Counted from the first letter of the stretch, positions 4,871 to 60,223 are shown. The stretch is 62,294 bases of DNA from Sedimentisphaerales bacterium (GCA_049643445.1 JBARPZ010000362.1:1-62294), one strand, 5' to 3'. Notes: generated by a model from the sequence alone, not told the origin. Numbers and translations: made by a program.

Positions 4871-6085
4871 ATGCCAAATTTGCTGACATCAAACGGTAAT
4901 GATATGAGTGCAAATGATCGTAAAAACGGCTCTTGCGGTGCTAAAATGGATGCCCACGATGTGGTATCCCTGGTGGACGATTTGTTCAAAAAAGCCATAG
5001 AATCCAATGCAAGCGATGTCCATTTCGAGCCCATGAGCTCCGAATTGGCTGTAAAATTTCGTCTTGATGGCGTCTTAAGCACAGTCGAAAAAGTGCCCAA
5101 ATCCTTGTCTGACAACATCGTTGCAAGGCTGAAGGTGCTGGGAGGCCTCCTGACCTATCGAAGCGATATACCCCAGGAAGGTCGGATTGAAATCAGCAAG
5201 AACCATAATGGCAGGATTACGGACCAGCGGCTTGCAGTTTTTCCAACGATACACGGTCAAAGAGCAGTGGTGCGGCTGTTCTACAAAAATAGAGAGCTTA
5301 TGGAATTGGGGCGGTTGGGATTTTCGGAGAGTACGTACACAGCTTTGAAGAGAATTGCTGCAAAAAATCAAGGTATCTTACTGCTAACCGGCCCAGCGGG
5401 TAGTGGAAAGAGTACCACGCTCGCCGCTCTTCTGCGACACATTCTAAAAAGCTTTCCCGGCAAGAGCATTGTAACTCTCGAAGACCCCGTGGAAATTAGA
5501 ATCGAAGGCATTACACAAACCCAGATTACACCGCACGGCCAGATGACATTTCCAACGGCCCTGCGGTCCCTGCTGCGACAGGATCCACAGGTTTTAATGA
5601 TTGGAGAGATCCGCGATGCAGAGACCGCAAAAATTGCTATCGAGGCAGGACTGACCGGGCATTTGCTAATGAGTACAATGCACAGCGGCACGCCTGCAGG
5701 GGCATTTTTACGGTTGCTGGAGATGGGTATTGAGCCTTACCAGGTAACCTCAAGCGTCTCAGCAGTCCTCAACCAACGGCTTGCCAGAAAACTTTGCAGC
5801 AAGTGTAAGAGAAAGATTAAGTCCACAAGGGCCGGATTTGAAGCAGTAGGATGTGACGACTGTTTTAACACCGGCTTTAAAGGACGGGTGCTCATAGCAG
5901 AAATGGTACAACTGGATGGACAGTTGCGAAAGGCCATCTTGGCAAAAGCCGACCTGGAACAGCTTGAAGATATCCTCGAAAGTAAAGGACATACGAATAT
6001 GCTTGAGGACGGCAGGCGCTTGGTCAGTGAGGGCGTCACAACACAGGAGGAACTGAATAAAGTTTGTGGAATCAGTACGAGCTAA
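4871..6085 (+). CDS. GspE/PilB-family secretion/pilus assembly ATPase (short form)
   Basis: It has ASDVHFEP, Walker A GPAGSGKSTT, the Asp box TLEDPVE, the His box GHLLMSTMHS, and the tetracysteine CSKCKRK...CDDC. The ORF opens at TTG 4865; the first ATG is at 4871. Confidence 0.85.
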   Translation: MPNLLTSNGNDMSANDRKNGSCGAKMDAHDVVSLVDDLFKKAIESNASDVHFEPMSSELAVKFRLDGVLSTVEKVPKSLSDNIVARLKVLGGLLTYRSDIPQEGRIEISKNHNGRITDQRLAVFPTIHGQRAVVRLFYKNRELMELGRLGFSESTYTALKRIAAKNQGILLLTGPAGSGKSTTLAALLRHILKSFPGKSIVTLEDPVEIRIEGITQTQITPHGQMTFPTALRSLLRQDPQVLMIGEIRDAETAKIAIEAGLTGHLLMSTMHSGTPAGAFLRLLEMGIEPYQVTSSVSAVLNQRLARKLCSKCKRKIKSTRAGFEAVGCDDCFNTGFKGRVLIAEMVQLDGQLRKAILAKADLEQLEDILESKGHTNMLEDGRRLVSEGVTTQEELNKVCGISTS

Positions 6086-6144
6086 TACTAATCAAATAAA
6101 ACTCGAAATATCTGTGGATCCTCCGTAGTTAATAGGAGCAGAAA

Positions 6145-7344
6145 ATGGCGACATTTGAATACAATGCATTGACATCGGCAGGCAGGCTGATGAAAGGCAC
6201 GATTGAAGCTGGGACTCGCCAAGAGGCGGGCGAGCTACTTAAACAAATGGAGCTTGCTGTTAATTCTATTGAAAAGGCCAAAGCCCCAAAGCCCAAGACT
6301 GCCATCGGAAGAAACGAGTTTATGCTTTTCAATCAGCAGCTTGCTTCAATAACAAAGGCTGGAATCCCTCTGGAAAGGGGGATGCGAGAGCTTGCAAGTG
6401 ATATCCGCTCGAAGTCAATGCGCAAACTCATTGATGCTATTGCCAGCGAACTTGAAGCAGGCACAAGTATTGAGGAAGCGTTTGAAAAGAGACAGAAGCG
6501 TTTTCCACCTCTCTATGGCCGGATATTAAAAGCGGGTGTTGAAACAGGAAGATTAAGTGAGATGTTGACGAGTCTTAACAGGCATCTGGAGTTGGCCCAT
6601 CAAACAAGGAGGATAATTTTCGAAGCATTGAGCTATCCTGCGGTCATCCTGGCCCTGGCTGCGGTTATTTTAACAGCTATATTTATGATAATAATCCCAC
6701 AATTCGGCCCCATACTGACAGAAATGACAGGGGGCGCAGAGTTGCCGGTGCTAACTCGATTATTCTTAGGTGTGACGGAAAATATAGTGCCTTTTTGGAT
6801 AGGCGCAGGAGTTCTTATCGCAGCGATAATTTTTATGGTTGGGTTACTCTCGTCTTCTCCGGCTGGACGAAGATTTAAGGAATCGCTGTTTTTGAGGGCG
6901 ATGGTTATCGGCAGGGTTTACCATAGTAGTGTGCTTAGCAGAATGGCCGAATCTATGGCTATGATGGTTGCTGCCGGTTGTGATATGCCGGCGTGCCTCA
7001 GATTAGGCTCTGCTTCAACCGGAAGCGAAAAACTCCTCTTGGAAAGCGAAATGCTTGCCAGCCAAATCGAACAGGGAGCTAATATCTTAGAGGCGGGACA
7101 ATTGTGTAAGATGATACCAAGGCTGTTTTTGTATTCGATTCAACTGGGCACGCAACGCAATGAATTGCAGGACAACCTTTACAGTCTGGGCCAGATGTAT
7201 TCTGAGCAGGCACGATGCGGACAGGCAAGGCTGCAGGCGGTCTTGTTGCCTGTTATGCTGATTGTTGTGGGAGGAGTTTTGGCAATGGCTGTACTTTCGA
7301 TGTTTTTGCCAATGATAACAATTATTACGCAGTTGTCTGTATGA
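6145..7344 (+). CDS. GspF/PilC-family inner-membrane platform protein
   Basis: 399 aa, preceded by the RBS TAGGAG. It has two T2SSF-like halves (FNQQLASITKAGIPLERGM...; VLSRMAESMAMMVAAGCDMPACL...) and three or more TM segments. Confidence 0.8.
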   Translation: MATFEYNALTSAGRLMKGTIEAGTRQEAGELLKQMELAVNSIEKAKAPKPKTAIGRNEFMLFNQQLASITKAGIPLERGMRELASDIRSKSMRKLIDAIASELEAGTSIEEAFEKRQKRFPPLYGRILKAGVETGRLSEMLTSLNRHLELAHQTRRIIFEALSYPAVILALAAVILTAIFMIIIPQFGPILTEMTGGAELPVLTRLFLGVTENIVPFWIGAGVLIAAIIFMVGLLSSSPAGRRFKESLFLRAMVIGRVYHSSVLSRMAESMAMMVAAGCDMPACLRLGSASTGSEKLLLESEMLASQIEQGANILEAGQLCKMIPRLFLYSIQLGTQRNELQDNLYSLGQMYSEQARCGQARLQAVLLPVMLIVVGGVLAMAVLSMFLPMITIITQLSV

Positions 7345-7358
7345 TGATTGGGTAGAGT

Positions 7359-8813
7359 ATGTTTGAAATTATAGCAATATTAACTTTGCTTCTCTGCGTA
7401 ATCCTGGCTTTTAAGAGGCCGGGTATTGCTTTGGTTATATTGCCTGTCGTATGTTTCTTGGTGGCTTATGCTGCCGTTTTGAGAGACTCGTTTGAGAATA
7501 TACTATTTGTACCCGTTATTTTCGTCGTTACATTGATGGTTGTGCTGATGACAAGACGTGAACCCGATTCTGAAAGTTGGCCTCAGCTATGTGCAAAATG
7601 GATGCTCATAATTCTTGCGTTTTTACTCTTATTTGTAACGGTAGGCTTTGTGTTTAGCGCTTTGTCGATTGTCGGCTTAATATTCTTTTTTTTATTCGTA
7701 GGTTCAATCATAGCTTACGGTTTAACATCCCGGCACGCGACTGCTGCATACGTCGTCTCGACAATTGGTTCGAGTATGCGGCAGAACCTGCCGTTACCTA
7801 TGGCCCTTGAATCAGCAGCCAGCGGGCGAAGAGACCAACGGTCAAGAATCTTAAGAAGAATACAACAATGGCTGGTTCAGGGCTACTCACTGAGCGAGTC
7901 AATCAAGCGAGGCTACCCTAAATGTCCCGGTTATGTAGTGGCAATGATAGCTGCTGCCGAGCGGATTGACCAGCTCCCGCTTGCGATTAAGAGCATTGAA
8001 ACTGATATGGTCGCCAAGGCCGATGAAAGCAGAAAAATCAGGCCGGTTCATGCATTTTACCCGGTAATACTAATAGCCTTTATGTTTTTCATAGTATTTG
8101 GATTAGTGTGGACGGTTTTTCCGCAATTTCACCAGGTGCTAATAGAAATGACAGGGGACACACAGTTTCCAGCTTCCACTCGAATCTTAATCTGGATCAC
8201 ACATTTTATCTCCTATGACTATGGGTGGTTAATCGCCTTGGTATTTGCGCTCGTAGTTCTTGTGGTTGTCCCTGCTTCGATTCGGATTAAGTTTCGGCCC
8301 CGTCGGCCGGACAAGCCTTATTTAACCTCGCGAATTGTTGATTTTGTTAAATGGCACTCGCCTGTTCTGCACTGGTTTGAGAAGAATTATTCGATGGTAC
8401 AGGTGGTTGAGCTTCTGAGGTTGTCACTCAATGCCGACGGTACGGTCGATAATGCGATTGCTAATACACTCGGGCTGGATGTGAACAATTGTTTTAGAAA
8501 ACGACTAAAAAAATGGCTGGAAAAAGTAGAGCAAGGTGACAATATTGCAACTGCGGCCAGGCAAACCGGATTAGGATCTCCTCTGGCTTGGGCGTTTGAT
8601 GAGCAGGTAAATCAGAGCAATACTTTGAATGTATTAGAAACACTTGAGTCGCTCTATCGCTCGAACTATAGCTACTATGCCAACCTTGTCAGGTTCATAA
8701 TGTGGCCTTGTGTAACACTAATTATGGGAGCAATGGTAGGTTTTGTTGTTTATGCCATATTTTCCCCGAGTATTGCCATTATTAACACTTTGGCGAACCA
8801 AGTGATGCCGTAA
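7359..8813 (+). CDS. second, divergent GspF/PilC-like platform protein with extra N-terminal TM helices
   Basis: 484 aa. T2SSF-like blocks (MRQNLPLPMALESAASG...QGYSLSESIKRG; MVQVVELLRLSLNADGTVDNAIANTLG) follow about four N-terminal TM helices. Confidence 0.6.
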   Translation: MFEIIAILTLLLCVILAFKRPGIALVILPVVCFLVAYAAVLRDSFENILFVPVIFVVTLMVVLMTRREPDSESWPQLCAKWMLIILAFLLLFVTVGFVFSALSIVGLIFFFLFVGSIIAYGLTSRHATAAYVVSTIGSSMRQNLPLPMALESAASGRRDQRSRILRRIQQWLVQGYSLSESIKRGYPKCPGYVVAMIAAAERIDQLPLAIKSIETDMVAKADESRKIRPVHAFYPVILIAFMFFIVFGLVWTVFPQFHQVLIEMTGDTQFPASTRILIWITHFISYDYGWLIALVFALVVLVVVPASIRIKFRPRRPDKPYLTSRIVDFVKWHSPVLHWFEKNYSMVQVVELLRLSLNADGTVDNAIANTLGLDVNNCFRKRLKKWLEKVEQGDNIATAARQTGLGSPLAWAFDEQVNQSNTLNVLETLESLYRSNYSYYANLVRFIMWPCVTLIMGAMVGFVVYAIFSPSIAIINTLANQVMP

Positions 8814-10408: not shown

Positions 10409-10636
10409 AGTGCGCCTATAATCCACATTCGGCAGAATATTCCACAAGAATGTGAATATAGCCAAGCTCCTGCGCGTATATTATGTTATAATAGTACGCC
10501 GTTATGACGTAGCCAAATTGGGAACGTTATGAAGCTATCTATCTGGAAAATCTCGACTTGGATAGATACGGGCCTGGCGTTGTAGCTGGGCTTGAAAATG
10601 AAAGGAACCGACAAGGTATATAGGAAAGGAGCGGTT

Positions 10637-12514
10637 ATGACTTATTCCAAAAGTTTCAGGAAGTGCGTAATCACCGTACTGGCAGTACTGATGATAGTCG
10701 GTAGTGCCTGGGCAGCAGACGCGGCGAAAAAAACGAGGGACCGGGCATTGCAGATGCTTCCGGCCGATACGCTGTTCTGTGTCAGGGTAAACAATCTTGA
10801 CAGCACCGCCGCGTCCGTGAATGAGTATCTTAAAGGTGTTGCCCCGGAGTCGCTCGATATTAAAGATGAGTTGCTTTCAAAACTGGCAGAGAGGCTGGGC
10901 AGTGAGAAGCCGAGGGGTGTTAATGTAAAGGGAACCTTCGCGATATTCGGCGTAAACCTGCCGAGTAAGGAGTCTGAGGTCAACCCCTTTGCCAACCTGT
11001 TTGTAGGGGCTTTAGTACAGGTCAACAATTACGACACCTTCGTCTCCAAAAATCCAAACGTGGGTGAAGCCGACGATGATGGTATCTCCAAAATAACAGT
11101 GGACGGGCATGAAGAAGCAATCGTTACGAAGAAAGGCCGGTTTGCCGTAATGTGTCCGCCCAGGTCCCGAGACAAGCTGATACGCTTCAAGAAGATGCGG
11201 ATCGGCAGGAAACGCGGATTGGGTGCTGTGCTGGACGAGAGCGAGAAGGAGTTGTTTAGGGCTTCGCCTATCTGGTTGTACGGAAATGTGCAGCAGTCTT
11301 CGAAGCTGTTCGCACCGTTGGTTTTTGCGCAGATCGAGGCGATGAAGGGATTGCTGAAGATGACACAGAAGCAGGGCAAGACCGCTATGGTGGATCCTGC
11401 CGCCATTGTCGACTTCTACATTGAGATATTCGAGATGCTGCTCAAGGGAACCGACCGTCTCGCCATCGGGATTGTGCCCACGGCCGAAAAGTGCACGTTT
11501 ACGCTGCAATGCAAGGCCGTTGACGGCACGCTCCTGGCACAGTTGCTGGTCGCGCCCGAGGGCGGCGACCTCAGCGAATTGATCGGCTATCTTGAGAACG
11601 GGGCATTCGCGAATGTTATCACCAAGGTCGATCGAAAGGGCATGAAGCTTGGCTACATGAAAATGTTCGATCTTTTCGCCTCCATATCACCCGATGCCAT
11701 GGACAAGGCCGAAACTGACAAGCTCAGGAAGCTGACCACCAGGTTCATCAATGCCATTGGCGATGGTATTGCGATATCGATGAAGTCCGGCGACGAGAAA
11801 AGCGGACCGTTCTCCTTTAAGTACGTCATCCAGGTCAAAGATGAACAAGCCTTCAAAGAGGTCATCGAAGAGGAATTCAAGATGATCGAGGAAGGGATGT
11901 TCGATAAGATGTACAAAGCCCTCGGCCTCGATATCCATTTGAAAATCGAGCGCGAGACAGCTACTTACAGGGGCGTAGAGATAAGCTCGGCCAGGCTGTC
12001 GTTCAAAATGGCCGAGGAGGATTCGAAAGAAGCCGAGATGATCGAAAAGATCTGGGGTAAGGGGCTGCAAATCCGCTTGGCGCTGCTTGATGGCTACTGT
12101 GCCTACGCATTCGGCGGCGACAGCGATAAAATCGTCCGCAACCTCATCGACCAGGTCAAGGCTGGTGGGCCGGACGGTTTAGCTTCAGAGATCGAGGCTG
12201 CCATCGACATACTTGAAGTCGGCGATGAGAATGACGATGAGGACTATGATTTTGGCGGGACGTTCAACTTTGTGCGGATGCTTAATATGACGTCTGGATT
12301 TATTGCCGCCTCGGGTGGGCCTCAGATCAAACCGCTGAACATGCTGACAAAGAGCAATATTGTTTTTGCCGGTCGGTCCCGAGATGGTAAGCTGCTCGTC
12401 GAGAGTGTGCTGCCGAAACAGCATCTGCTCGAGATCAAGGCCGCGGGTGAGAAGTTCGGTGAAGAGATGGGAAAAGGCGTGAAGGAGATGCAAAAGAAAA
12501 ATTCACCGAGATAG
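10637..12514 (+). CDS. secreted protein of unknown function (~625 aa)
   Basis: I moved the start to ATG 10637, preceded by the RBS AGGAG. It has the signal peptide MTYSKSFRKCVITVLAVLMIVGSAWA|AD. I recognise no catalytic motif. It is the last same-strand gene after the pseudopilin genes. Confidence 0.6.
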   Translation: MTYSKSFRKCVITVLAVLMIVGSAWAADAAKKTRDRALQMLPADTLFCVRVNNLDSTAASVNEYLKGVAPESLDIKDELLSKLAERLGSEKPRGVNVKGTFAIFGVNLPSKESEVNPFANLFVGALVQVNNYDTFVSKNPNVGEADDDGISKITVDGHEEAIVTKKGRFAVMCPPRSRDKLIRFKKMRIGRKRGLGAVLDESEKELFRASPIWLYGNVQQSSKLFAPLVFAQIEAMKGLLKMTQKQGKTAMVDPAAIVDFYIEIFEMLLKGTDRLAIGIVPTAEKCTFTLQCKAVDGTLLAQLLVAPEGGDLSELIGYLENGAFANVITKVDRKGMKLGYMKMFDLFASISPDAMDKAETDKLRKLTTRFINAIGDGIAISMKSGDEKSGPFSFKYVIQVKDEQAFKEVIEEEFKMIEEGMFDKMYKALGLDIHLKIERETATYRGVEISSARLSFKMAEEDSKEAEMIEKIWGKGLQIRLALLDGYCAYAFGGDSDKIVRNLIDQVKAGGPDGLASEIEAAIDILEVGDENDDEDYDFGGTFNFVRMLNMTSGFIAASGGPQIKPLNMLTKSNIVFAGRSRDGKLLVESVLPKQHLLEIKAAGEKFGEEMGKGVKEMQKKNSPR

Positions 12515-12517
12515 GCT

Positions 12518-12545
12518 AACAAAAAATCCCAAAGGGATTTGTAGG
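12518..12545. terminator. putative bidirectional intrinsic terminator
   Basis: The stem is AAATCCC(12524-30)/GGGATTT(12534-40) with loop AAA. An A-run lies upstream on the + strand, so on the - strand the hairpin is followed by TTTTTTG. It sits 4 nt after the stop of 10637-12514. Confidence 0.45.
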
Positions 12546-12559
12546 CATTGGGAGCATTT

Positions 12560-13100
12560 ATTTGGCCGGCGGAGTAGCCGAGAGACTTACGCCGGGTGTT
12601 AATTTTCATTCGCAGCAGCATTTTATTGGCTTTAATTGGGTTTGTATTGGGTTTGTTTTGGCTTTAATTGGCTTTGAATTGGCTTTGTATTGGGTTTGTA
12701 TTGGCTTTGAATTGGCTTTGTTTTCCTAATTGACCAAGTGTCCAATTGTACATAATTCCTTGTTAGTACTTTATTTACGTTCAACTTGACTTTTCGGAAT
12801 TTGGCTTTGTTTTGCATAAAAAGTTTATTTTTTCGTACGTAGACTTTCGTACTTCGTAAGTCGTTTATTAACCACGGATTAACACTGATTTCACGGATTT
12901 TTTCACCACGAAGGCACGAAGAACACGAAGAGAAATTAGACAGGATAACAGGATTAACAGAGATCATAGAGGTTTTTGGCCGGCTAAATAAGTGTTTATT
13001 TATCATTAATACACCAAAATGTTTCAATATTTGTCTTTTATGATGCAAAATAATGCCTTTTTGACTTGGGCTGCTGCCCTACTCGTGCGGTTCTTCGCAA
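12560..13100 (-). repeat. R1, a ~0.5-kb copy of a dispersed intergenic element and the inverted partner of 39819-40292
   Basis: The reverse complement aligns with 39819-40292. Examples: ATAAACGACTTACGAAGTACGAAAG identical; ACACTTGGTCAATTAGGAAAA identical; GAACCGCACGAG.AGGGCA at the inner ends; AAAATGCTGCTGC at the outer ends. Identity by eye is about 75-90% in the alignable blocks. Confidence 0.75.
12626..12722. repeat. tandem array of nine 10-11-bp units, TTGG(C/G)TTTG(T/A)A
   Basis: Units start at 12626, 12636, 12647, 12658, 12668, 12679, 12690, 12701 and 12712. Mean period is about 10.8 bp. Confidence 0.9.
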
Positions 13101-13143
13101 TAATTAGTATTTAGTATCTCGTATTTAGTATATAGCCGGTTGA

Positions 13144-13208
13144 GGCCGAGACGGCCGGTATTGCTTATTGACCGCCTACTGGCGGTTTACGTTTGTCTGC
13201 TGGCAAAC
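13144..13208. other. three consecutive short GC-rich stem-loops
   Basis: The three are GGCCG-AGA-CGGCC (13144-56), ACCGCC-TACT-GGCGGT (13171-86) and GTTTG.C-TGCT-G.CAAAC (13191-208). The first hairpin plus its flank recurs at 19035-19062. Confidence 0.5.
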
Positions 13209-13386
13209 ATAAGAATATATTAACATATTACCAAACAATGTTCAACAAAAAAATGAAAAAAAGTGCTTTTTTTAACCACGGATTTACACAGATTTTCGCG
13301 GATTTTTATTGTGGACGGGTGGGGGCGGGATTGGTAAATTGGGGGTTTAAAGATCGCAGATATACGTGAGACGCTTTTCAATGATT

Positions 13387-13436
13387 ATTGATAAAGGATA
13401 ATTGATTATTTATTGGATAAGGATGATTGATTATTG
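13387..13436 (+). repeat. tandem duplication of a ~25-nt AT-rich unit (TGATTATT motifs)
   Basis: ATTGATAAAGGATAATTGATTATTT is followed by ATTGGATAAGGATGATTGATTATTG. It lies 20 nt upstream of the 34-nt repeat and about 70 nt upstream of gene 13509. Confidence 0.7.
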
Positions 13437-13455
13437 TAAACGAAACCGGCGCGTT

Positions 13456-13490
13456 GGATTCTTATACGGAAACCATATATACAATAGTTG
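13456..13490 (+). promoter_or_regulatory. 34-nt conserved element (copy 1) upstream of island gene 1
   Basis: GGATTCTTATACGGAAACCATATATACAATAGTTG matches 14219-14252 at 31 of 34 positions. It contains the imperfect palindrome TATACGGAAACCATATA and a TATATA box. It ends 18 nt before ATG 13509. Confidence 0.5.
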
Positions 13491-13508
13491 CGGATTTGAG
13501 AAACGGGA

Positions 13509-14156
13509 ATGGATTGGAACGAGTTGGTATTAGAGTTCATGCTGCCAGCAGTTGGCTCGATTGCAACTGTTTTTGCGGCAGGGACAGCGATATGGGGCAT
13601 TCGCGCTTGGCGGCGAGAATATTTGGGCAAGCGTCGAATCGATCTTTCAGAAGAGATACTTGCGCTCATATATGAGGCGCGTGATGTCTTAGAAGCGGTC
13701 AGGTCTCCACTTAGTCGTAAGGGGGAAGGTTCGACGCGACAGGCAAATCCCGACGAGACACCGAAGGAAAAGGAAATGTTGGATCAAGCATACGTCCAGA
13801 TCGAACGATGTAACACACGCCAAGATTTATTTGCACAACTCCGCTCCTTGCGGTATCGTTTCATGGCGCAACATGGACGAGAAGCGGGCAACTTGTTTGA
13901 AGAGTTGAACGCGATAAGACGTGAGCTTTCGAGGCCGATTAATAAGTTGCACCTTCGTATTGGGGCATTGCGGCGGAAAAAAGACACTAGAAATAATGAT
14001 GCGTTTGACAAAGAACTCGACAAAATTTGGCAGGAGGAATGGCAAACGATTTACGGTTATGAAGGTGACAATTCTGACGGCGAGGATCCACTACTCAAGA
14101 GAGTTGACGCAATAGTTAAGCAGTTCGAAGAGATATGCCGTAAAACAATTAACTAA
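13509..14156 (+). CDS. single-pass membrane protein with a helical cytoplasmic domain; unknown function (island gene 1)
   Basis: 215 aa. It has an N-terminal TM helix LEFMLPAVGSIATVFAAGTAIWGI. The rest is charged and helical. No motif is recognised. Confidence 0.55.
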   Translation: MDWNELVLEFMLPAVGSIATVFAAGTAIWGIRAWRREYLGKRRIDLSEEILALIYEARDVLEAVRSPLSRKGEGSTRQANPDETPKEKEMLDQAYVQIERCNTRQDLFAQLRSLRYRFMAQHGREAGNLFEELNAIRRELSRPINKLHLRIGALRRKKDTRNNDAFDKELDKIWQEEWQTIYGYEGDNSDGEDPLLKRVDAIVKQFEEICRKTIN

Positions 14157-14218
14157 ACAATTTTAACTTGGGGCGAGTGCAGCGAAAATGATGTCTGTCC
14201 CTAATAAACAAGGATACT

Positions 14219-14252
14219 GGGTTCTTATACGGAAACCATATAAACAGTAGTT
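14219..14252 (+). promoter_or_regulatory. 34-nt conserved element (copy 2) upstream of island gene 2
   Basis: GGGTTCTTATACGGAAACCATATAAACAGTAGTT ends 26 nt before ATG 14279. Confidence 0.5.
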
Positions 14253-14278
14253 ATGTGTCATTGTAGAAAAGAGTAGCT

Positions 14279-15199
14279 ATGCAAGAAATTAAATTATGGA
14301 ATATTCATGATGATAATGTTGTTCAAATTAAGAAAGAGCATTTAGATTATGAAAGTAGACTGGAAAAATGGCTTATTGAAGATATATCAATCCTATCAAG
14401 TAATTTAGCAGTAGTTGGTACACAGGTTGTAACTTCATTCGGGAAAAAGATTGATATATTAGCGATAAATTCTATTGGGGAATTAATTATTTTAGAGCTA
14501 AAAAGAGATAAAACATATAGAGAAGTTATTGCGCAAGCATTAGATTATGCTACCTGGATAAAAGATTTATCTTATGAAGATTTGAATAATATTCTGAATA
14601 AATACGGAAAATCAGAATACAAAGATATTGGCGACTTATTTACAGCATCATTTAACAAAGAAGTTGATGATATAGATTTTAATTCAGATCATAAAATGTT
14701 AATTGTTGGATCCGAGATAGACGATTCCACGATAAGGATAATTAATTACCTTTCCAATGAACCTTATTCAGTAAACATCAATGCAGTTAACTTTAATTAC
14801 TTTAAAGACGATAATGGCCAGGAATATTTAGCGCAATCATTTATAAACCCAGAAGTGAATATAACTGAAGAAAGCCGAAGTAAAAAACGAAAAAGGGCTA
14901 AATCGATTATTGCAAGCCTTTTTGAACAAGATAAACTTCAAGTAGGACAGAAAGTATATTTCAAACCAGCTATTGATCAAGGACACAGAAAAGATAATGT
15001 ATGTGCAGAAATAGTAAATAAAAATCAGAATTGTTTAAAAAGGAAAGATAAGGAGGAATTGTATTCCTTTAGCAAATTACGAGGAATTCTAACTGATGAA
15101 TTAGAATTAGAGGATGTTAACAAATTTTGGGGTTTTGGTGTTAGATACGATTGGATTACTGAAAGTGGTAAAAACTTATCTGATTTACTTGAAGAATAG
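14279..15199 (+). CDS. NucS/DUF91-like PD-(D/E)xK nuclease domain protein with a RAMA/DUF4357-like C-terminal module (island gene 2)
   Basis: 306 aa. The core LEKWLIEDISIL...GKKIDILAINSIGELIILELKRDKTYREVIAQALDYATWI fits the D...ExK NucS-type fold. The C-terminus (LQVGQKVYF...ELYSFSKLRGIL...WGFGVRYDWITESGKNLSDL) resembles RAMA-type modules. The gene is very AT-rich: sampled 60-nt lines are 25-30% G+C. Confidence 0.6.
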   Translation: MQEIKLWNIHDDNVVQIKKEHLDYESRLEKWLIEDISILSSNLAVVGTQVVTSFGKKIDILAINSIGELIILELKRDKTYREVIAQALDYATWIKDLSYEDLNNILNKYGKSEYKDIGDLFTASFNKEVDDIDFNSDHKMLIVGSEIDDSTIRIINYLSNEPYSVNINAVNFNYFKDDNGQEYLAQSFINPEVNITEESRSKKRKRAKSIIASLFEQDKLQVGQKVYFKPAIDQGHRKDNVCAEIVNKNQNCLKRKDKEELYSFSKLRGILTDELELEDVNKFWGFGVRYDWITESGKNLSDLLEE

Positions 15200-15291
15200 T
15201 ACTGAGAAAACACATAACAGATCGTTGCACCTGACTTTTTTTCGCCTCGCTCCAAAATGCAGGTGAACTCAAGCTTTCGCCGGAAGAGATA

Positions 15292-15753
15292 ATGGACCAG
15301 AAATTTAAGGATCTGATCGATGGATTACACAGAAGATATGAGGACCTCATGGCCATGTCTCCTGTTACCATCGACACAACTCCGAATGAATGCCCCGTAG
15401 GCGGAGTCTACCTCTTCAGTGAGAACGGCACTCATCTTTATGCAGGCAGAACGAAGAGGAAGATAAAGAAGAGGTTGAAGGGGCATGTTAACACAGCCGT
15501 GGATTGTCCGTTTGCATGGCACCTTGCACGAGAAACAACAGGCATAAAGAAGGCCACGTACAAGAAAGAGGGATCTCGAAGGGATCTTCTCTCTCAACCA
15601 GAGTTTCGGCAAGCGTATGAATCAGCAAAGGACCGAATCCGAAGAATGGAAGTTCGGTTCGTTGGTGAGTCAGACCCCTTGAAACAAGCACTTCTCGAAA
15701 TCTATGTCGCTGTTGTTTCCGGGGCGAAATACAATGACTTTGACACACACTAA
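15292..15753 (+). CDS. GIY-YIG nuclease-domain protein (island gene 3)
   Basis: 153 aa. GGVYLFSENGTHLYAGRTKRKIKKRLKGH supplies the GIY, YxG, Arg and His positions. The later ALLEIYVAV supplies the conserved Glu. Confidence 0.6.
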   Translation: MDQKFKDLIDGLHRRYEDLMAMSPVTIDTTPNECPVGGVYLFSENGTHLYAGRTKRKIKKRLKGHVNTAVDCPFAWHLARETTGIKKATYKKEGSRRDLLSQPEFRQAYESAKDRIRRMEVRFVGESDPLKQALLEIYVAVVSGAKYNDFDTH

Positions 15754-15838
15754 TGGAATGGCGAACAAAGCCTTGGAGCCTACCGTGTAAACGCGGCGGC
15801 TCAAGGCAGTCCGTTCGACAACAATAACTATTGGATAG

Positions 15839-16708
15839 ATGATGCGTCTACGAATTCACATTGCAATGGCCAATGAAGAACTCGTCGCTCTAGTCAACGA
15901 GGGATACGATGCCATTTCAGCTATGCAAGCTGCCTATCAGGAAAGAAAAGCCAGTGAAGCCTATAACGACTCGAAGGACGTCGACGAACTCATAGCGCCA
16001 GTTAACGCTTGGGCGGATAAAGTAGTCGAATCGTTGGGACGAATTTTCCCGACGCAACTTGAGAAGAACCTGTTTCTTGATCCGGAAATCCCATTCGGTG
16101 CCGTCAGCGGCGACTACAAATACCAAAGTGCACTCAATCGGTGCCGCCACTTTGTCCGCGGCCTCAACAAGATCCGAATACATAACCTTCCCGAGTACAC
16201 GGACCTACCGCTGGACGTCCGGTTGTACGTCGAAGATATCGACAGCTTTCGCAAGGTTCGTGACGTCAATCCTGCTACCGTGATGGACGTGCTGACAGAC
16301 GGCTATCTTAACCGATCAGAAGACTCAATACAGACCGCACTAGAACGAATTCTAAGTGTTCCGTTCCACAAGAAGGATTGGGGGGGAGAGCAAAACGATC
16401 TTTACACTGCCAACCTGCTCATCAACGGGGCACGTCACGAGACCGCATTTCTATTGAAGGGCAATGGACTACGAAGCAAAACCATGGAAATTAAGCACTG
16501 CGGCGTCAACGGAGATCAGATCCTTCGCCTCTGTAACTCTCCTGCGAAGCTCTTCGTGGTTCAGTTTGTTGGCAGAATTTCAGAGGCTATCGTATCGGAC
16601 ATTGACGGTAAAGTGCGACACGCACGCTCTCAAGGAAAAGAGATGTGGTATTGCATCATGGACGGTCAAGACACCGCGAGGGTCCTTCGAGCATATGGCG
16701 AGTTGTAG
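15839..16708 (+). CDS. unknown protein with a possible restriction-endonuclease-like C-terminal domain (island gene 4)
   Basis: 289 aa. The N-terminal half is helical. The C-terminal block is KDWGGEQNDLYTANLLINGARHETAFLLKG...HCGVNGDQILRL...LFVVQFVGRISEAIV, with an acidic residue then a beta-strand ending in K, as in PD-(D/E)xK folds. The assignment is tentative. The start could be Met10 (15866). Confidence 0.4.
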   Translation: MMRLRIHIAMANEELVALVNEGYDAISAMQAAYQERKASEAYNDSKDVDELIAPVNAWADKVVESLGRIFPTQLEKNLFLDPEIPFGAVSGDYKYQSALNRCRHFVRGLNKIRIHNLPEYTDLPLDVRLYVEDIDSFRKVRDVNPATVMDVLTDGYLNRSEDSIQTALERILSVPFHKKDWGGEQNDLYTANLLINGARHETAFLLKGNGLRSKTMEIKHCGVNGDQILRLCNSPAKLFVVQFVGRISEAIVSDIDGKVRHARSQGKEMWYCIMDGQDTARVLRAYGEL

Positions 16709-17125
16709 AGATTACTGCCGAACAATTTCTAATCTCATATTTCGCTGCACTCTTCAAGATGTCCACATCAAGCATTTAGGTAAGTAAAATAACACAAAGA
16801 GACCGAAAAGGGAATGAAAAAGCACTTTTTTTGGCCATCCCCGCGAAGGCGGGGAGATGTTGGAGAGGTGTTTGGGTAGGGGTGAGTAGTTCATTGCTTG
16901 ACTATCTCGACAGGGCTCGACAGGCAAATGTAGGGCTGGGATTGAAGCTGGTGGAGTGGGAGTGAGAGAACTATACACCCCCCTCAGAATCCCCTATGAT
17001 TAAATATAACTTAAAACCTGGAGTTAGCCGGTAGTAAACAAACAACTAATAAGATCGCAATACATGGAAGTCTGCTTTTTAACAAGTTGTCATCTCCTAA
17101 ATACAGTTGATACTATAATTACAAA

Positions 17126-18664
17126 CTATTCAATCCAGAACGAATACAGCCTGGCATTCTTCAACTGAAACACTAATCGCAAGTGCCCATCACCTGGCTC
17201 TGCCAGCTCCTTCATTGATTTCCAGACCATCCTGCCCTTAGTTATATCTTCAGTCAACGCAATCGAATCATCCAGCGTATACGATTCAATCGGCTCTGAA
17301 TCTCTTGACAACACCGCGGCCTTGACCCAGCCGCCATCCGCCACTTCGACATTTAGAAATAAACCCTCACCCTTGAACGTCATAGGGCGGGTTATTATTT
17401 GGCCTGGTGTTTGGCCGGCATTGAGCGAGGCAAAACCATCCCGGCGCAGCTTAGCCAGACCGATACCAAACGACCAGTCGTTGACATCCTCGCGATTGGC
17501 ACTGCGCGCGCCGAAATAGTAAAACCACAGTTCATTGCCGACGAGAGCGGGTATGATTTTTGCGGGCCCTAAATAATCGGCGTCCCAACTGTCATCTGTT
17601 CCTAATGGAATAAAGGGCTTTCGCTGGCTCGGCCTGGACCAATGGCGACCGTCTCGGCTATAGCTCAATTGAATATCGACCTGTTTGAAGCCTTTGGGAA
17701 TTAGGCGCATAGTGCGTATCATCCCAACCCACATACTCTCATAGACAAACCCGATATGACCGTACAATTGCCGGTCCGGCGGGTCGAGCCGGTCGGGAAA
17801 CATAAGAAACCGCTCACGGCTCCAGTGGATAAGGTCGTCGCTTTCCATAAAGGCACGAAGTCTCAGCCTGGGTTTGTGGTCCTGGACGATTCCGAGTTGC
17901 TTGATTTTTTCTTCGGGAAAATACAAGTTGAATTTGGTATCGCAAATGTACTTTTTCAATACAGGATCGTAGCGAAAAATACATGTGTCCCCGACTCCTT
18001 TGGCCCAGAAAGGACCGGGTTTCATATAACTGTATGTTCTTTTGAGAATCGGATGTTTGAAACTCTGTTTCCAGTGCAGACCGTCTGCGGAGTGGTACGC
18101 ATAAAACCCGCCTGCTTCGTCTCCCCGTTTTTCGATGACGGCCTCATATCGCCGTTGTGGATCCGCCGCATCGGGATTAAAGATAAATCCTCTTACTTCT
18201 CCGGGGCCATTGAAGATTCTGTTGTCCTGCGGCCCCAGATCGGGTTTTGTCCAGTGAATGCCGTCGGTGCTTTCGGCGTAATTCATACTGTACCACATAC
18301 GGAATTTGCCGCTTTTGTTATCATATAAAACAGCCACCGGAACGCCGGGCATCAACGGATTACCAGAATATTTGGCCGGCTGATGAAATTGATGGGTAAG
18401 ATTTTTCATCGAGCCTATACAATAGTCATCAATAAACAGTTGCCGCTTTGAGTCAATCTTCATCGGCCAGTCGGTTACATTGCCCGGAAACATTATATGG
18501 TCGCTGGTCAAGATACTATAGGCTTCTGGAAACCGGTCGCGGTCCACCCAGGACTCAGATTTGTCAGTTGATTTCGCCGTCACCGACATAGCCGAAAGCA
18601 TAAGCAAAAAGAAACTTATGAATAAATACATACTGACTTTGAGAACTGTTTTACTGTTTGTCAT
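17126..18664 (-). CDS. secreted protein, probably a beta-propeller-type glycoside hydrolase
   Basis: 512 aa with the signal peptide MYLFISFFLLMLSAMSVTA. It has the pattern RQLFIDDYCI...NPLMPG...ESTDGIHWTKP and W-rich repeated blocks like uncharacterised GH43/32/130-like proteins. The family is not resolved. Confidence 0.45.
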   Translation of the reverse strand: MTNSKTVLKVSMYLFISFFLLMLSAMSVTAKSTDKSESWVDRDRFPEAYSILTSDHIMFPGNVTDWPMKIDSKRQLFIDDYCIGSMKNLTHQFHQPAKYSGNPLMPGVPVAVLYDNKSGKFRMWYSMNYAESTDGIHWTKPDLGPQDNRIFNGPGEVRGFIFNPDAADPQRRYEAVIEKRGDEAGGFYAYHSADGLHWKQSFKHPILKRTYSYMKPGPFWAKGVGDTCIFRYDPVLKKYICDTKFNLYFPEEKIKQLGIVQDHKPRLRLRAFMESDDLIHWSRERFLMFPDRLDPPDRQLYGHIGFVYESMWVGMIRTMRLIPKGFKQVDIQLSYSRDGRHWSRPSQRKPFIPLGTDDSWDADYLGPAKIIPALVGNELWFYYFGARSANREDVNDWSFGIGLAKLRRDGFASLNAGQTPGQIITRPMTFKGEGLFLNVEVADGGWVKAAVLSRDSEPIESYTLDDSIALTEDITKGRMVWKSMKELAEPGDGHLRLVFQLKNARLYSFWIE

Positions 18665-39818: not shown

Positions 39819-40292
39819 GCGGAGAACCGCACGAGCAGGGCAAGCCGCCCAAGTAAAATATCAATAATCAGTAAGAAAGGGCCCTATTCATGCACAAGTT
39901 GTTTGAAATTCCCTCTATTACTCTGTTTCTTTGTGTATTTTGTGCATTTTTGTGGCTAAAAAATCCATTTAATCAGCGTAATCCGCGATTAATAAACGAC
40001 TTACGAAGTACGAAAGCTTACGTACGAAATTATAAACTTTTTTTGCAAAACGAACCCAAATTCCGAAAAAGTCAAATGAACGTAACTGGTTATATGAAAA
40101 GGGAATATGAACAAATGGACACTTGGTCAATTAGGAAAAACGAACCCAAAACGAACCCAAACGAACCCAATTAAAGCCAAAAAAATGCCAAAACGAACCC
40201 AATTCAAACCCAAACAAACCCAATTTCAGAGGCAAAAAAATGCTGCTGCATTCGACAATTAATGGACTGCGAAAGAGAGGCCTGATATTCTA
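39819..40292 (+). repeat. R2, the inverted partner of R1 (12560-13100)
   Basis: See R1 for the alignment. It ends in the 61-nt module GCAAAAAAATGCTGCTGCATTCGACAATTAATGGACTGCGAAAGAGAGGCCTGATATTCTAC (40230-40292). Confidence 0.75.
40138..40222. repeat. tandem array of eight 10-11-bp units, (A/T)ACGAACCCAA type
   Basis: Units end in CCAA at 40148, 40159, 40169, 40179, 40190, 40201, 40212 and 40222. It is the complement-strand counterpart of the array at 12626-12722. Confidence 0.9.
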
Positions 40293-57890: not shown

Positions 57891-58947
57891 GAGAAGGTCC
57901 TTTGCCTGATAAGATTTCCTTCAAAGTCAGGATGAGTTTGTCGTTTTGTTCGCTAGTACCGACCGTTATCCTGAGTTTATTATTTAGTAACGGAAGGTCA
58001 AAATACCTAATATAGATATTTTGCCGGGTCAGTTTTTCATAAATTTCTTTTGCTTCGCAGTTATTGCACTCGGCCAGGACGAAATTGGCGCTGCTCTTCG
58101 CGGCCTTGAATTTCAAAGCTCGCAGTTGTTCGATCAGTATGTCGCGGTCTCTTTTTACCTTTTCGACATTTTCTTTGAAATACTTTTGGTCTTTTATTGC
58201 GGCTGTGGCTACGGTGATAGCAAGAGCATTGACATTGTATGAGTCCTTGAGCTTCATTAGACCCGCTATCAAAGGCGGCTGGGCAATCGCATATCCGAAG
58301 CGGAGGCCCGCCAAGCCATAGCCTTTGCTCATCGAGCGAAGGATAATCACATTGTCAAAATCCTTAACCAGGTTTACGCAATTGTCATCTGCAAAATCTA
58401 TATAAGCCTCATCAATCAGCAATATGCCTTCCAATTCACCTGCAAAGGAGGCCAGCTCACCGGGTTCTACGAAAGTGGCACTCGGTGCGTTTGGATTACA
58501 AACGATAGTTAAGTTAGCACCGGTCGCGGCCAGTTTTGGGGGCAGATTGAACTCGGGGTCGAAGGGGACTTCAATCGCCTTGCAATTTTGCAGATTGGCG
58601 AGGACCGGATAAAGTGAATACGTAGGGACTGGATACGCGACAGGTCTGTTTTCATCGCAAAAAGCACGCAAGGCAATGGTAAGCAATTCGTCCCCGCCGT
58701 TGCAGCATAAGATATTGTCAGCAGAGACGCGGTGAACCTTGGCTGCGGCCTGGCGGAATTGCTCTCCGACGGGATCGGGGTATCGGCGAAGCTTTTCTGC
58801 ATCAATTTCTGCCAGCACCTTCATCACAGCAGGCGAAGGCGGGTAGGGATTCTCATTGGTGTTGAGCTTTAGCACGTCCGTTTGCTTCGGCTGAAAACCC
58901 GGCTCATAACCCTTTGCCTTTTCAATATTTTCCCTAAAATAACTCAT
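57871..58947 (-). CDS. hisC: histidinol-phosphate aminotransferase
   Basis: I moved the start to ATG 58947 (MSYFRENIEKAKGYEPG). The track ORF extends to 59277 through low-complexity sequence that overlaps the next gene. It has the PLP-Lys block RSMSKGYGLAGLRFGYA. Confidence 0.9.
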   Translation of the reverse strand: MSYFRENIEKAKGYEPGFQPKQTDVLKLNTNENPYPPSPAVMKVLAEIDAEKLRRYPDPVGEQFRQAAAKVHRVSADNILCCNGGDELLTIALRAFCDENRPVAYPVPTYSLYPVLANLQNCKAIEVPFDPEFNLPPKLAATGANLTIVCNPNAPSATFVEPGELASFAGELEGILLIDEAYIDFADDNCVNLVKDFDNVIILRSMSKGYGLAGLRFGYAIAQPPLIAGLMKLKDSYNVNALAITVATAAIKDQKYFKENVEKVKRDRDILIEQLRALKFKAAKSSANFVLAECNNCEAKEIYEKLTRQNIYIRYFDLPLLNNKLRITVGTSEQNDKLILTLKEILSGKGPSHGRQNS

Positions 58948-59053
58948 GTCAACTCCAAATACATTCCAAGCCTGGATTATACGGATATATGGTCGGGAGG
59001 GAAAGATTGATTTTACGATATTTACAGGATGATAACTAATACAGATCAGGAAC

Positions 59054-60223
59054 TTAATCGTAAAAACCGAACTGATAGGCGGCGTCAAAGAGGGCGAGGA
59101 TGTTTTCAGGGGAGACGCCGACCTGGATGTTATGGACATTATTGAATACGTAGCCGCCTCCCGGCTTGAATATTTCGATATTTTTTCGCACGTGCTCGGT
59201 GATTTCGGCAGGTTTGGCAAAGGGCAGGACGTGCTGGGCGTCGATGCCGCCGCCCCAGAAGACAATTTGACTGCCAAACATTTCTTTTAATTTTGCCGGC
59301 TCCATATTTACCAGGCCGATTTGGACGGGATTGAGAATGTCAATGCCATTGTCAATAAGGTCTGGAATGTATTCGTAACATGAACCGCAGGTATGATACC
59401 AGATTTTTGCATTGGTGAGGGACCTGATGTGTTGGACGAGTTTTTTTTGCCGAGGCTTTACTATTTTACGGTAAAAATCCGGAGAGAACAGAGGGCCGCT
59501 CTGGCCTGCGAGGTCGTCACCTATCATTACGATGTCAACGATGTCACCGAGTTCGGCCATGAAGCCGGTGTAATAATCGAGCCAGAATTTAAGGGTGTAG
59601 TCAAGGAGGGCCTGGCAAAAGGCGGGGGTTTCTATCATATCTATAAACCACTGTTCGAGGCCTCGCATGTACCAGCAATATTCATATACGACGCCGCCTA
59701 TGCCGGTCGATATGGCATACTGGGTATCGCTGCGTAATTGTAAGGCCTGCTGGCGAACTCCTGTAAAACGGGAAGCGTCACTGCCATCTGGGAAAGGATA
59801 ATTGTCGATGTCGGCGATTGTAGCGTTAGCTAAGGGATGATGTGAGATATCCATATAAAGGCCCTGGTCGTCAGGCATTGACCAGACGACGCCAAACTCG
59901 TCCTTTAGGTCGTGCCAGAGTTTGCCATTCCGAGTGTTCTGTTCAATTCCACCCTTGAAATCATCGGGGCCATGGGCGCAGATATAGCGAATATCAACCC
60001 GGAGACGTTTGAGGATTTCTTCGCTCGGTTTGGCAAGCTGCTGGACGGGGTCGAGGATTGTAATTTCTTCGGTGAGGCTTAGGTGAGAGAGTAATTCGAC
60101 GTAGGCTTTTTGATGTATGCCGGTCTGAAAGCCGCCGAGGTCAATGGGGACCCTGTCGGGGATTTGGTGATTGAGGGCTTTTATGACACGCTCTCTTGAA
60201 GTCATCGTCTCTTTATTTGCCAT
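59054..60223 (-). CDS. uroporphyrinogen decarboxylase (URO-D) family protein, MtaA/CmuA-like
   Basis: 389 aa. It has the N-terminal MTSRERVIKALNHQIPDRVPIDLGG; the length is also typical of URO-D-fold enzymes. The substrate is unknown. Confidence 0.7.
   Translation of the reverse strand: MANKETMTSRERVIKALNHQIPDRVPIDLGGFQTGIHQKAYVELLSHLSLTEEITILDPVQQLAKPSEEILKRLRVDIRYICAHGPDDFKGGIEQNTRNGKLWHDLKDEFGVVWSMPDDQGLYMDISHHPLANATIADIDNYPFPDGSDASRFTGVRQQALQLRSDTQYAISTGIGGVVYEYCWYMRGLEQWFIDMIETPAFCQALLDYTLKFWLDYYTGFMAELGDIVDIVMIGDDLAGQSGPLFSPDFYRKIVKPRQKKLVQHIRSLTNAKIWYHTCGSCYEYIPDLIDNGIDILNPVQIGLVNMEPAKLKEMFGSQIVFWGGGIDAQHVLPFAKPAEITEHVRKNIEIFKPGGGYVFNNVHNIQVGVSPENILALFDAAYQFGFYD

Follow-up and report, generated by a model that had tools for sequence, protein, structure and literature searches.

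A nuclease-rich gene island in a Phycisphaerae chromosome is probably a short integron-type cassette array without a nearby integrase

Four small genes that follow one another on the same strand, with short gaps between them and non-coding DNA on both sides, raise the question of whether they work together as one system or were brought together as unrelated acquisitions. Such an island, whose genes are here called g1 to g4, lies in a stretch of 62,294 nucleotides (nt) from a Sedimentisphaerales bacterium (GCA_049643445.1 JBARPZ010000362.1:1-62294; hereafter, the window), and an earlier note on this DNA had proposed it as an uncharacterised four-gene defence system. The open reading frames (ORFs) are where that note had placed them (Table 1), encode proteins of 215, 306, 153 and 289 amino acids (aa), respectively, and are separated by 122, 92 and 85 nt, within the claimed range of 85-122 nt. 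The island is probably a short integron-type array of four unrelated one-ORF cassettes without a nearby integrase, located in the chromosome of a member of the Phycisphaerae (Planctomycetota), and each gene appears, from its sequence context, to have been acquired, and to be able to move, on its own. Arrays of this kind resemble the attC-site clusters without an integron-integrase (CALINs) known from other genomes, and integrons have been reported in Planctomycetes (Cury et al. 2016, PMC4889954; PMC9024848). The names in its 90% RuvB cluster place the host among the Planctomycetota/Phycisphaerae.

The comparisons were made with 73 loci that contain a homologue of one island gene, each of which was searched for the remaining three. 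By gene, these amount to 35 loci for g4 (29 of which include 1.2 kb or more upstream of the gene), 13 for g3, 21 for g2 and 8 for g1; individual loci are cited by their L numbers. DNA homology splits the island into units: a g2 unit (14218/14250-15277), 92-97% identical to L053-L058, and a g3+g4 unit (15276-16725). The breakpoints fall between 14250 and 14251 and between 15275 and 15276, that is, at G/TT (the slash marks the crossover), which is the point at which integrons recombine. Homology to L055-L057 begins exactly at 14250, where L053 and L054 additionally carry a 35-nt sequence, the E-element, which is discussed below, while matches to g2 loci end at 15272-15277 and matches to g3 loci begin at 15276. 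A common start of the g2 unit was found in seven contigs: it reads G/TTATGTG in the window, L054, L055 and L058, with variants at the same position in L053 (TTCGGTG), L056/L057 (TTATTTG) and L064 (TTGTGCG). The g3 unit starts with G/TTCGCCGG in L049 and L051, and the g4 unit with G/TTCGRC in the window, L003 and L008. For each ORF the distance from the crossover is 16-28 nt, and the cassettes measure approximately 0.5-1.0 kb (about 0.54-1.03 kb). In close relatives, the same g2 or g3-g4 units are flanked by different cassettes.

Sites of the attC type, defined as imperfect hairpins between the inverse core sites R'' (RYYYAAC) and R' (GTTRRRY), were sought at the ends of these units. The sole strict match inside the island is the site of the g3 cassette, whose 60 nt fold into a single hairpin with a dG of -15.1 kcal/mol (DNA parameters). 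In the site of the g2 cassette, R' reads TTTCGCC where GTT is expected, position 15275 being T in the window versus G in L054, so that the g2/g3 boundary appears as ...AAGC[T]/TTCGCC in the former and as ...AAGCG/TT in the latter. What would be the rest of the g1 site has been replaced by the second copy of the E-element, and the site of g4, truncated in the window, is complete 3' of g4 in L049 and L051 (GCCGAAC...GTTAGGG). Canonical attC-like sites follow g4 in L003, L014, L021 and L049, and g1 in L041. The array of L049 contains three attC-like sites and consists of g3-g4 followed by four other small ORFs. Strict attC matches were found downstream of 4 out of 29 g4 homologues, compared with 2 of 138 control segments. 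An alignment with MAFFT of the variable-length attC hairpins from the related loci gave a right arm too inconsistent for a covariance model.

The search for an integrase was performed by tblastn with an IntI1 sequence, a probe that did detect recombinases in L012 and L056. In the 62-kb window it retrieved no tyrosine recombinase below an E value of 0.5, which is why the island is regarded as an integrase-less (CALIN-like) array in decay. A complete integron, with intI beside attI and a Pc promoter, was likewise not found in the window: there is no intI, the E-element (see below) resembles an attI by its position only, and promoter calls were at the level of chance. ORFs beside the related arrays that had been considered as integrase candidates turned out to encode proteins such as a U32 peptidase, a 5'-3' exonuclease and a sigma factor. 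The L012 recombinase was also discarded as the array integrase, since it does not adjoin the g4 homologue and lacks an attC in its vicinity.

From these features, a sequence of events can be proposed in which an integron integrase, either encoded elsewhere and acting in trans or since lost, would have built the array, with the E-element possibly serving as an attI-like insertion site. Damage to the core sites, namely the G to T change at 15275 and the cut of the attC after g4 immediately behind R'', may then have frozen the present gene order. Mutations of the crossover G, by which GTT becomes TTT or ATT, occur at several junctions (15275 in the window; ~8987 and ~7285 in L053), and they should block excision and freeze the order of the cassettes. 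The genes themselves most likely act singly and not as a complex.

The resemblance to a CALIN or a sedentary chromosomal integron extends to several traits. These include ORFs on one strand, each cassette having a single ORF behind a 5' leader of 16-28 nt and ending at G/TT, attC-like imperfect hairpins with inverse core sites, cassettes that vary among close relatives and the lack of a nearby integrase. The window differs from such arrays in that it keeps only one or two recognisable attC sites, its core sites are mutated or truncated, and two of its junctions hold the non-hairpin E-element. Some observations weigh against the interpretation as a cassette array. The window contains only one strict attC, the g2 site being degenerate and the g1 and g4 sites truncated or replaced; the tally of one strict, one degenerate and one truncated site compares with a default of at least two attC sites within 4 kb for a CALIN in IntegronFinder 2 (PMC9024848). 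Neither the 62 kb nor the contig of any close relative yielded an integrase. At least 25 of the 29 g4 homologues lack an adjacent strict attC, and hence the g4 family is not restricted to integrons. Finally, the E-element is neither a hairpin nor a described attI, and it recurs inside arrays, unlike the single attI of classical integrons.

The E-element had been noticed earlier as a 34-nt sequence shared by the upstream regions of g1 and g2. The repeat itself is real, its two copies being 91% identical over 35 nt, and its 20-nt core occurs exactly twice in the 62 kb, compared with zero expected copies. The consensus of the element is TTATACGGAAACCATATAWACAnTAG/TT, and in L041, L044, L046 and L049-L054 it adjoins G/TT before various ORFs, g1, g2 and g3 among them. 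In these loci it precedes g3 (L049-L052), g2 (L053 and L054), a 162-aa ORF and g1 (L044), or g1 (L041 and L046); the arrays of L044, L049 and L053 each contain three copies, every one of them followed by G/TT, or a mutated form of it, and then by an ORF 14-83 nt further on. The element keeps its place while the downstream cassette varies. Because it is a junction element standing at G/TT before many unrelated cassettes, it provides no evidence for co-regulation of g1 and g2. Moreover, the arrangement of the window, E-element/TTATGTG...g2...AAGC[T]/TTCGCCGG...g3, is the product predicted for the insertion of a g2 cassette of the L054 type at the E-element/g3 junction of L049, which, as far as the sequence can tell, is attI-like behaviour. 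On folding, the E-element gave no attC-type hairpin, and a single match of its core in a viral contig was uninformative.

Its candidate roles are those of a recombination site, a promoter or leader, or both. Tentatively, the E-element might be an undescribed attI-like landing site that seeds small integrase-less arrays at several chromosomal positions of Phycisphaerae, served in trans by a distant integrase; if so, cassette capture in this lineage would depart from the plan of one integrase, one attI and one array. Its occurrence both at the starts of arrays and at cassette junctions, with no integrase close by, may deserve follow-up.

Units of 150-300 nt without an ORF also recur in related arrays, where they lie after a canonical attC and before the following ORF (7765-8003 and 8915-9240 in L053; 3930-4280 in L049). 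Where the preceding core is intact they start with G/TTACGCGCGGTTCA.CGGAATTC, the start of the unit at 8915-9240 in L053 being diverged and located after a mutated core. They carry a promoter-like motif, TTGACT/TGGACT-N16-TATACT, terminate in the E-element (L049 and L053) and may represent promoter-bearing non-coding cassettes. The segment upstream of the first E-element in the window has its counterpart in L044, where it precedes a first cassette different from g1.

Table 1. Position and description of the cassettes, junction elements and flanking features in the window
Feature	Position	Strand	Description
Upstream flanking gene	10592-12514	+	640 aa
Array leader	13301-13454	+	Non-coding, 5' of first cassette; 71% identity to L044 2024-2177
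E-element, copy 1	13455-13489	+	TGGATTCTTATACGGAAACCATATATACAATAG/TT; ends at crossover, G 13487, TT 13488-13489
g1 cassette ORF	13509-14156	+	215-aa single-pass membrane protein with helical cytoplasmic part
Possible R''-like remnant of g1 cassette attC	14161-14167	+	TTTTAAC; by sequence inspection; weak; no hairpin folds
E-element, copy 2	14218-14252	+	Ends G(14250)/TT(14251-14252); g2 cassette begins here
g2 cassette ORF	14279-15199	+	N-terminal NucS-like PD-(D/E)xK domain (D59, E73, K75) and C-terminal domain of ~100 aa; 29% GC
Degenerate attC of g2 cassette	15212-15281	+	R'' ACATAAC; stem GCACCTGAC/GCAGGTGAAC; conserved in L053, L054
g3 cassette ORF	15292-15753	+	153-aa GIY-YIG protein (GVYLF...LYAGRTKRKIKKRLKGH...ALLEIYV...AKYN)
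attC-like site of g3 cassette	15760-15819	+	R'' GGCGAAC, bulged imperfect hairpin, R' GTTCGAC; crossover G 15813
g4 cassette ORF	15839-16708	+	N-terminal helical bundle (~residues 8-119) and C-terminal alpha/beta domain of ~165 aa
Remnant of g4 cassette attC	16717-16725	+	R'' GCCGAAC plus AA; homology to L049-L052 stops at 16725
GC-rich hairpin	16838-16855	.	Between array and convergent 512-aa gene
Downstream flanking gene	17126-18664	-	512 aa; convergent with array

Among the other explanations, the island could be a defence island of a generic kind, or what is left of some other mobile element, bounded by palindromes and with attC-like features that are incidental. The palindromic A/T motif GAAAAAG-NN-CTTTTT stands once on each side of the island, at 13257-13272 and 16816-16831, and nowhere else in the 62 kb, and relatives of g4 are often located in ordinary defence islands. 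The palindrome was found in none of the 73 loci, however, and neither the island nor the DNA adjoining it contains an integrase, transposase or phage gene. The unit-wise breaks of homology at G/TT and the predicted insertion junction, which are specific to integron-type recombination, further argue against this explanation, which is considered unlikely.

Equally in need of consideration is a more restricted association, in which g3 (GIY-YIG) and g4 (Mrr-like) would form a co-travelling two-gene module with g1 and g2 as unrelated neighbours. Across the survey, all 21 g2 loci and all 8 g1 loci lack the other island genes, and g3 stands alone in 9 of its 13 loci (L032-L040). As for g4, no other island gene accompanies it in 31 of 35 loci, and in those 31 it has no conserved neighbour of any kind. 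The exceptions, L049-L052, also contain g3, and g3+g4 is the sole recurring combination among the 73 loci. In favour of a module, these four contigs come from different samples and keep the two genes adjacent with the same gap of 85-88 nt. They nevertheless share with the window a single block of 1450 nt (15276-16725) at 96.3% identity; because this DNA identity spans the whole block, they represent one lineage and provide no independent support for the linkage of g3 and g4. With a single gene of the pair in each of the remaining g4 (31) and g3 (9) loci, and a canonical attC-like site between the two, such a module is slightly less probable still than the generic defence island.

The proposal of the earlier note, that all four genes cooperate in one uncharacterised multi-gene defence system, drew on their common strand, the short gaps between them, the nuclease-type folds (up to three) and the missing methyltransferase, and is highly improbable in view of the absence of co-occurrence outside near-identical contigs, the mosaic GC content (29% in g2 versus 47-50% in its neighbours), the recombination-site junctions between the genes and the single-gene action of the family of g2. 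Co-localisation of the homologues in other genomes was the mark by which that proposal had asked to be judged, and in the 73-locus survey the homologues lie apart; a false lead is thereby removed, and the locus holds no new four-gene defence system. What does survive of it is the broader description of the island as foreign, nuclease-rich and probably related to defence, given that g2 belongs with PDC-S11/Madara and that g4 homologues lie near defence genes, without the idea of one joint system.

The protein with the clearest relatives is g2, which had been read as a nuclease of the NucS PD-(D/E)xK type. This was borne out by a match of residues 3-207 to the PADLOC profile PDC-S11 (PDLC04916; E 3.6e-59), together with a weak match to NucS_C, and the motif residues D59, E73 and K75 are invariant in 14 homologues. 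Plasmid homologues, annotated as DUF91/NucS-domain proteins, cover only the N-terminal 60% of g2. Family members also conserve the C-terminal ~100 aa, and residues 210-306 had no match in Pfam or the PDB, which leaves the suggested RAMA/DUF4357 module at the C-terminus without support from Pfam. The best PDC-S11 profile ends at residue 207, and one profile extends to residue 256. PDC-S11 corresponds to Madara, a single-protein modification-dependent defence with a NucS-like nuclease and an EVE-like C-terminal domain, in which the mutation D63A abolishes activity; a single-gene restriction phenotype against phage with modified DNA has been reported for the E. coli ECOR34 protein only (bioRxiv 10.64898/2026.09.05.749240). 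Like Madara, g2 is a single, AT-rich gene on mobile DNA, its N-terminal ~205 aa match the PDC-S11 profiles and it has the NucS-like D...ExK motif, whereas the best profile leaves out its C-terminal ~100 aa, in which an EVE-like reader is unconfirmed. By its predicted nuclease domain, g2 is thus a member of the PDC-S11/Madara family, a known kind of single-gene anti-phage nuclease. By analogy, it would act as a type IV-like nuclease, the C-terminal reader recognising modified phage DNA and the NucS-like PD-(D/E)xK domain cutting it, and such an action, triggered by modified DNA, would explain the missing methyltransferase. In L056 (153-1187) and L057 (1460-4408), the g2 homologue lies directly downstream of a gene for a large protein with a PHP domain and an AAA_21/SMC-like ATPase, a context unlike that of the cassette arrays.

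For the g3 protein, 390 homologues were counted, which make up a tight family of 153-aa proteins. Its reading as a GIY-YIG protein was upheld at the family level, as PF01541 was detected in 28 of 32 homologues (best 1.4e-6) and the top PDB match of the family profile was the GIY-YIG domain of UvrC (E 0.02); g3 itself scores below the Pfam cut-off for PF01541 (19.5 versus 22.6 bits). Residues G37, G38, Y40, Y50, G52, R61, H65, E136 and N148 are invariant. With the UvrC-type domain, g3 shares the GVY...YxG-RTKR...R..H half, and its ALLEIYV...AKYN segment seems, by inspection, to resemble the second half of that domain. It differs by an N-terminal helix of ~35 aa, an internal insertion and the lack of a DNA-binding module. 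Functionally, g3 may be a stand-alone GIY-YIG nuclease.

For g4, whose true start is probably the second ATG (15842), the widest distribution was observed, with 613 close homologues at 60-97% identity in Acidobacteriota, Planctomycetota, Clostridia, Desulfobacterota, Nitrospirota, Cyanobacteria, Patescibacteria and Methanothrix. Some of them adjoin GmrSD, MmeI/Eco57I-type and PLD-SNF2 genes. An exact look-up of the protein returned nothing, profile searches of Pfam, NCBIfam and PADLOC gave no match, sequence searches of PHROGs and the PDB were also empty, and no relatives were found in viral contigs. In a model of the full-length protein (pLDDT 85.7), the N-terminal part is a helical bundle and the C-terminal part an alpha/beta domain; since the Foldseek search with these two domains together was uninformative, the C-terminal domain was modelled alone (pLDDT 87.6), which gave an alpha-beta-beta-beta-alpha-beta topology. 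Its Foldseek matches are weak (E 7e-3 to 5e-2) and mutually consistent: they include the N-terminal domain of RPB5 (7e-3), MUS81, Avs4 (TMq 0.47), a phage 'restriction endonuclease' (probability 0.96) and Mrr-domain proteins. The restriction-endonuclease-like core ascribed to g4 is therefore backed by fold matches, themselves weak, and not by any sequence profile, and the best guess from the model is that the domain is an Mrr/restriction-endonuclease-like nuclease. Besides topology and fold matches, the likeness to Mrr-type or type IV PD-(D/E)xK enzymes lies in the pattern E169...GGEQND187...AFLLK207, whose residues E169, D187 and K207 are invariant in g4 and presumably parallel the E...D...QxK pattern of Mrr. 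The differences are the LxK motif, with Leu where Q or E is usual ((D/E/Q)xK), and the lack of a match to Pfam, NCBIfam or PADLOC profiles.

The C-terminal domain of g4 (16211-16708, residues ~125-289; ~165 aa) also occurs as an independent and strongly conserved module, which an exhaustive profile search retrieved from 1027 representative clusters (E <= 0.001). Its fusion partners include pentapeptide repeats, HEAT repeats, a STAND NTPase of 1417 aa and many uncharacterised N-termini, and none of the proteins with this module matches PADLOC through it. The family, which is unnamed, large and horizontally spread in bacteria and archaea, may deserve follow-up. In the island, g4 might act as a stand-alone nuclease that combines a sensor-like helical N-terminal domain with this widespread effector-like, probably Mrr-like, C-terminal domain.

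Finally, g1 was correctly described as a single-pass membrane protein, with an N-terminal hydrophobic helix (Kyte-Doolittle peak at residues 6-28) and a helical remainder. None of its 31 homologues has a domain, and searches of PHROGs, NCBIfam and PDB sequences gave no informative match. Matches to designed coiled coils were discarded as a compositional effect. In other loci, g1 stands as a lone cassette with canonical attC-like sites behind it. In L041, a three-ORF array that includes a g1 homologue lies at 5481-8468 between hisC and accD, and the counterpart of this site in the window (58947-59054) measures only ~100 nt; the ruvB, ruvA, ruvC, cysS, hisB and hisC products of L041 are 70-90% identical in aa sequence to those of the window. 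Since the site of the L041 array is empty in the window, arrays occupy different chromosomal sites in related genomes.

The presence of defence genes in integron cassettes is an already documented theme, integron cassettes having been described as stores of anti-phage genes (Darracq et al. 2024, bioRxiv 10.1101/2024.07.02.601686). The island resembles the cassettes of that study in its small, streamlined and mostly single-gene defence-type functions, as illustrated by g2, whose 306 aa fall short of the 347-379 positions in the PDC-S11 profiles. The cassettes of that study come from Vibrio and other integrase-encoding genomes, in contrast to the present array, which is from Phycisphaerae, lacks a nearby integrase and is known from sequence alone. 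The picture gained, of a decaying integron-type array with defence-type single-gene cassettes in an uncultured Phycisphaerae genome, fits the notion of chromosomal integrons as anti-phage stores.

The surroundings of the island consist of ~1 kb of non-coding DNA upstream (12515-13508) and ~0.4 kb downstream (16709-17125). The pilus-type neighbourhood described upstream was recovered as a type II secretion system/pilus-type cluster with Pfam matches to T2SSE, two T2SSF and an N_methyl pseudopilin. Neither of the two large flanking genes has a Pfam match, and the 'CAZyme' label given to the 512-aa gene was for this reason not confirmed; the gene beyond it is PhoD-like. The hairpin TCCCCGC-GAAG-GCGGGGA downstream of g4 is present, and its role as a terminator finds no backing, as no T-run follows and the terminator scan made no call there. 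Promoter and terminator scans gave calls at chance level only, and an Rfam search of 12400-17200 matched no RNA family. The 'repeat-laden' DNA upstream is in large part a dispersed non-coding repeat of ~340 nt outside the cassette array. It occurs in the window at 12599-12931 and, inverted, at 39928-40262, as well as in L049 (353-501); the two window copies are 78.7% identical and contain 8-9 tandem units of 11 nt (TTGGSTTTGNA). Short repeats of the AACCACGGATTWACACWGATTT type are also found in the upstream non-coding DNA, at 12864-12902, 12951-12977 and 13268-13307, the two longer copies being 87.5% identical over 40 nt.

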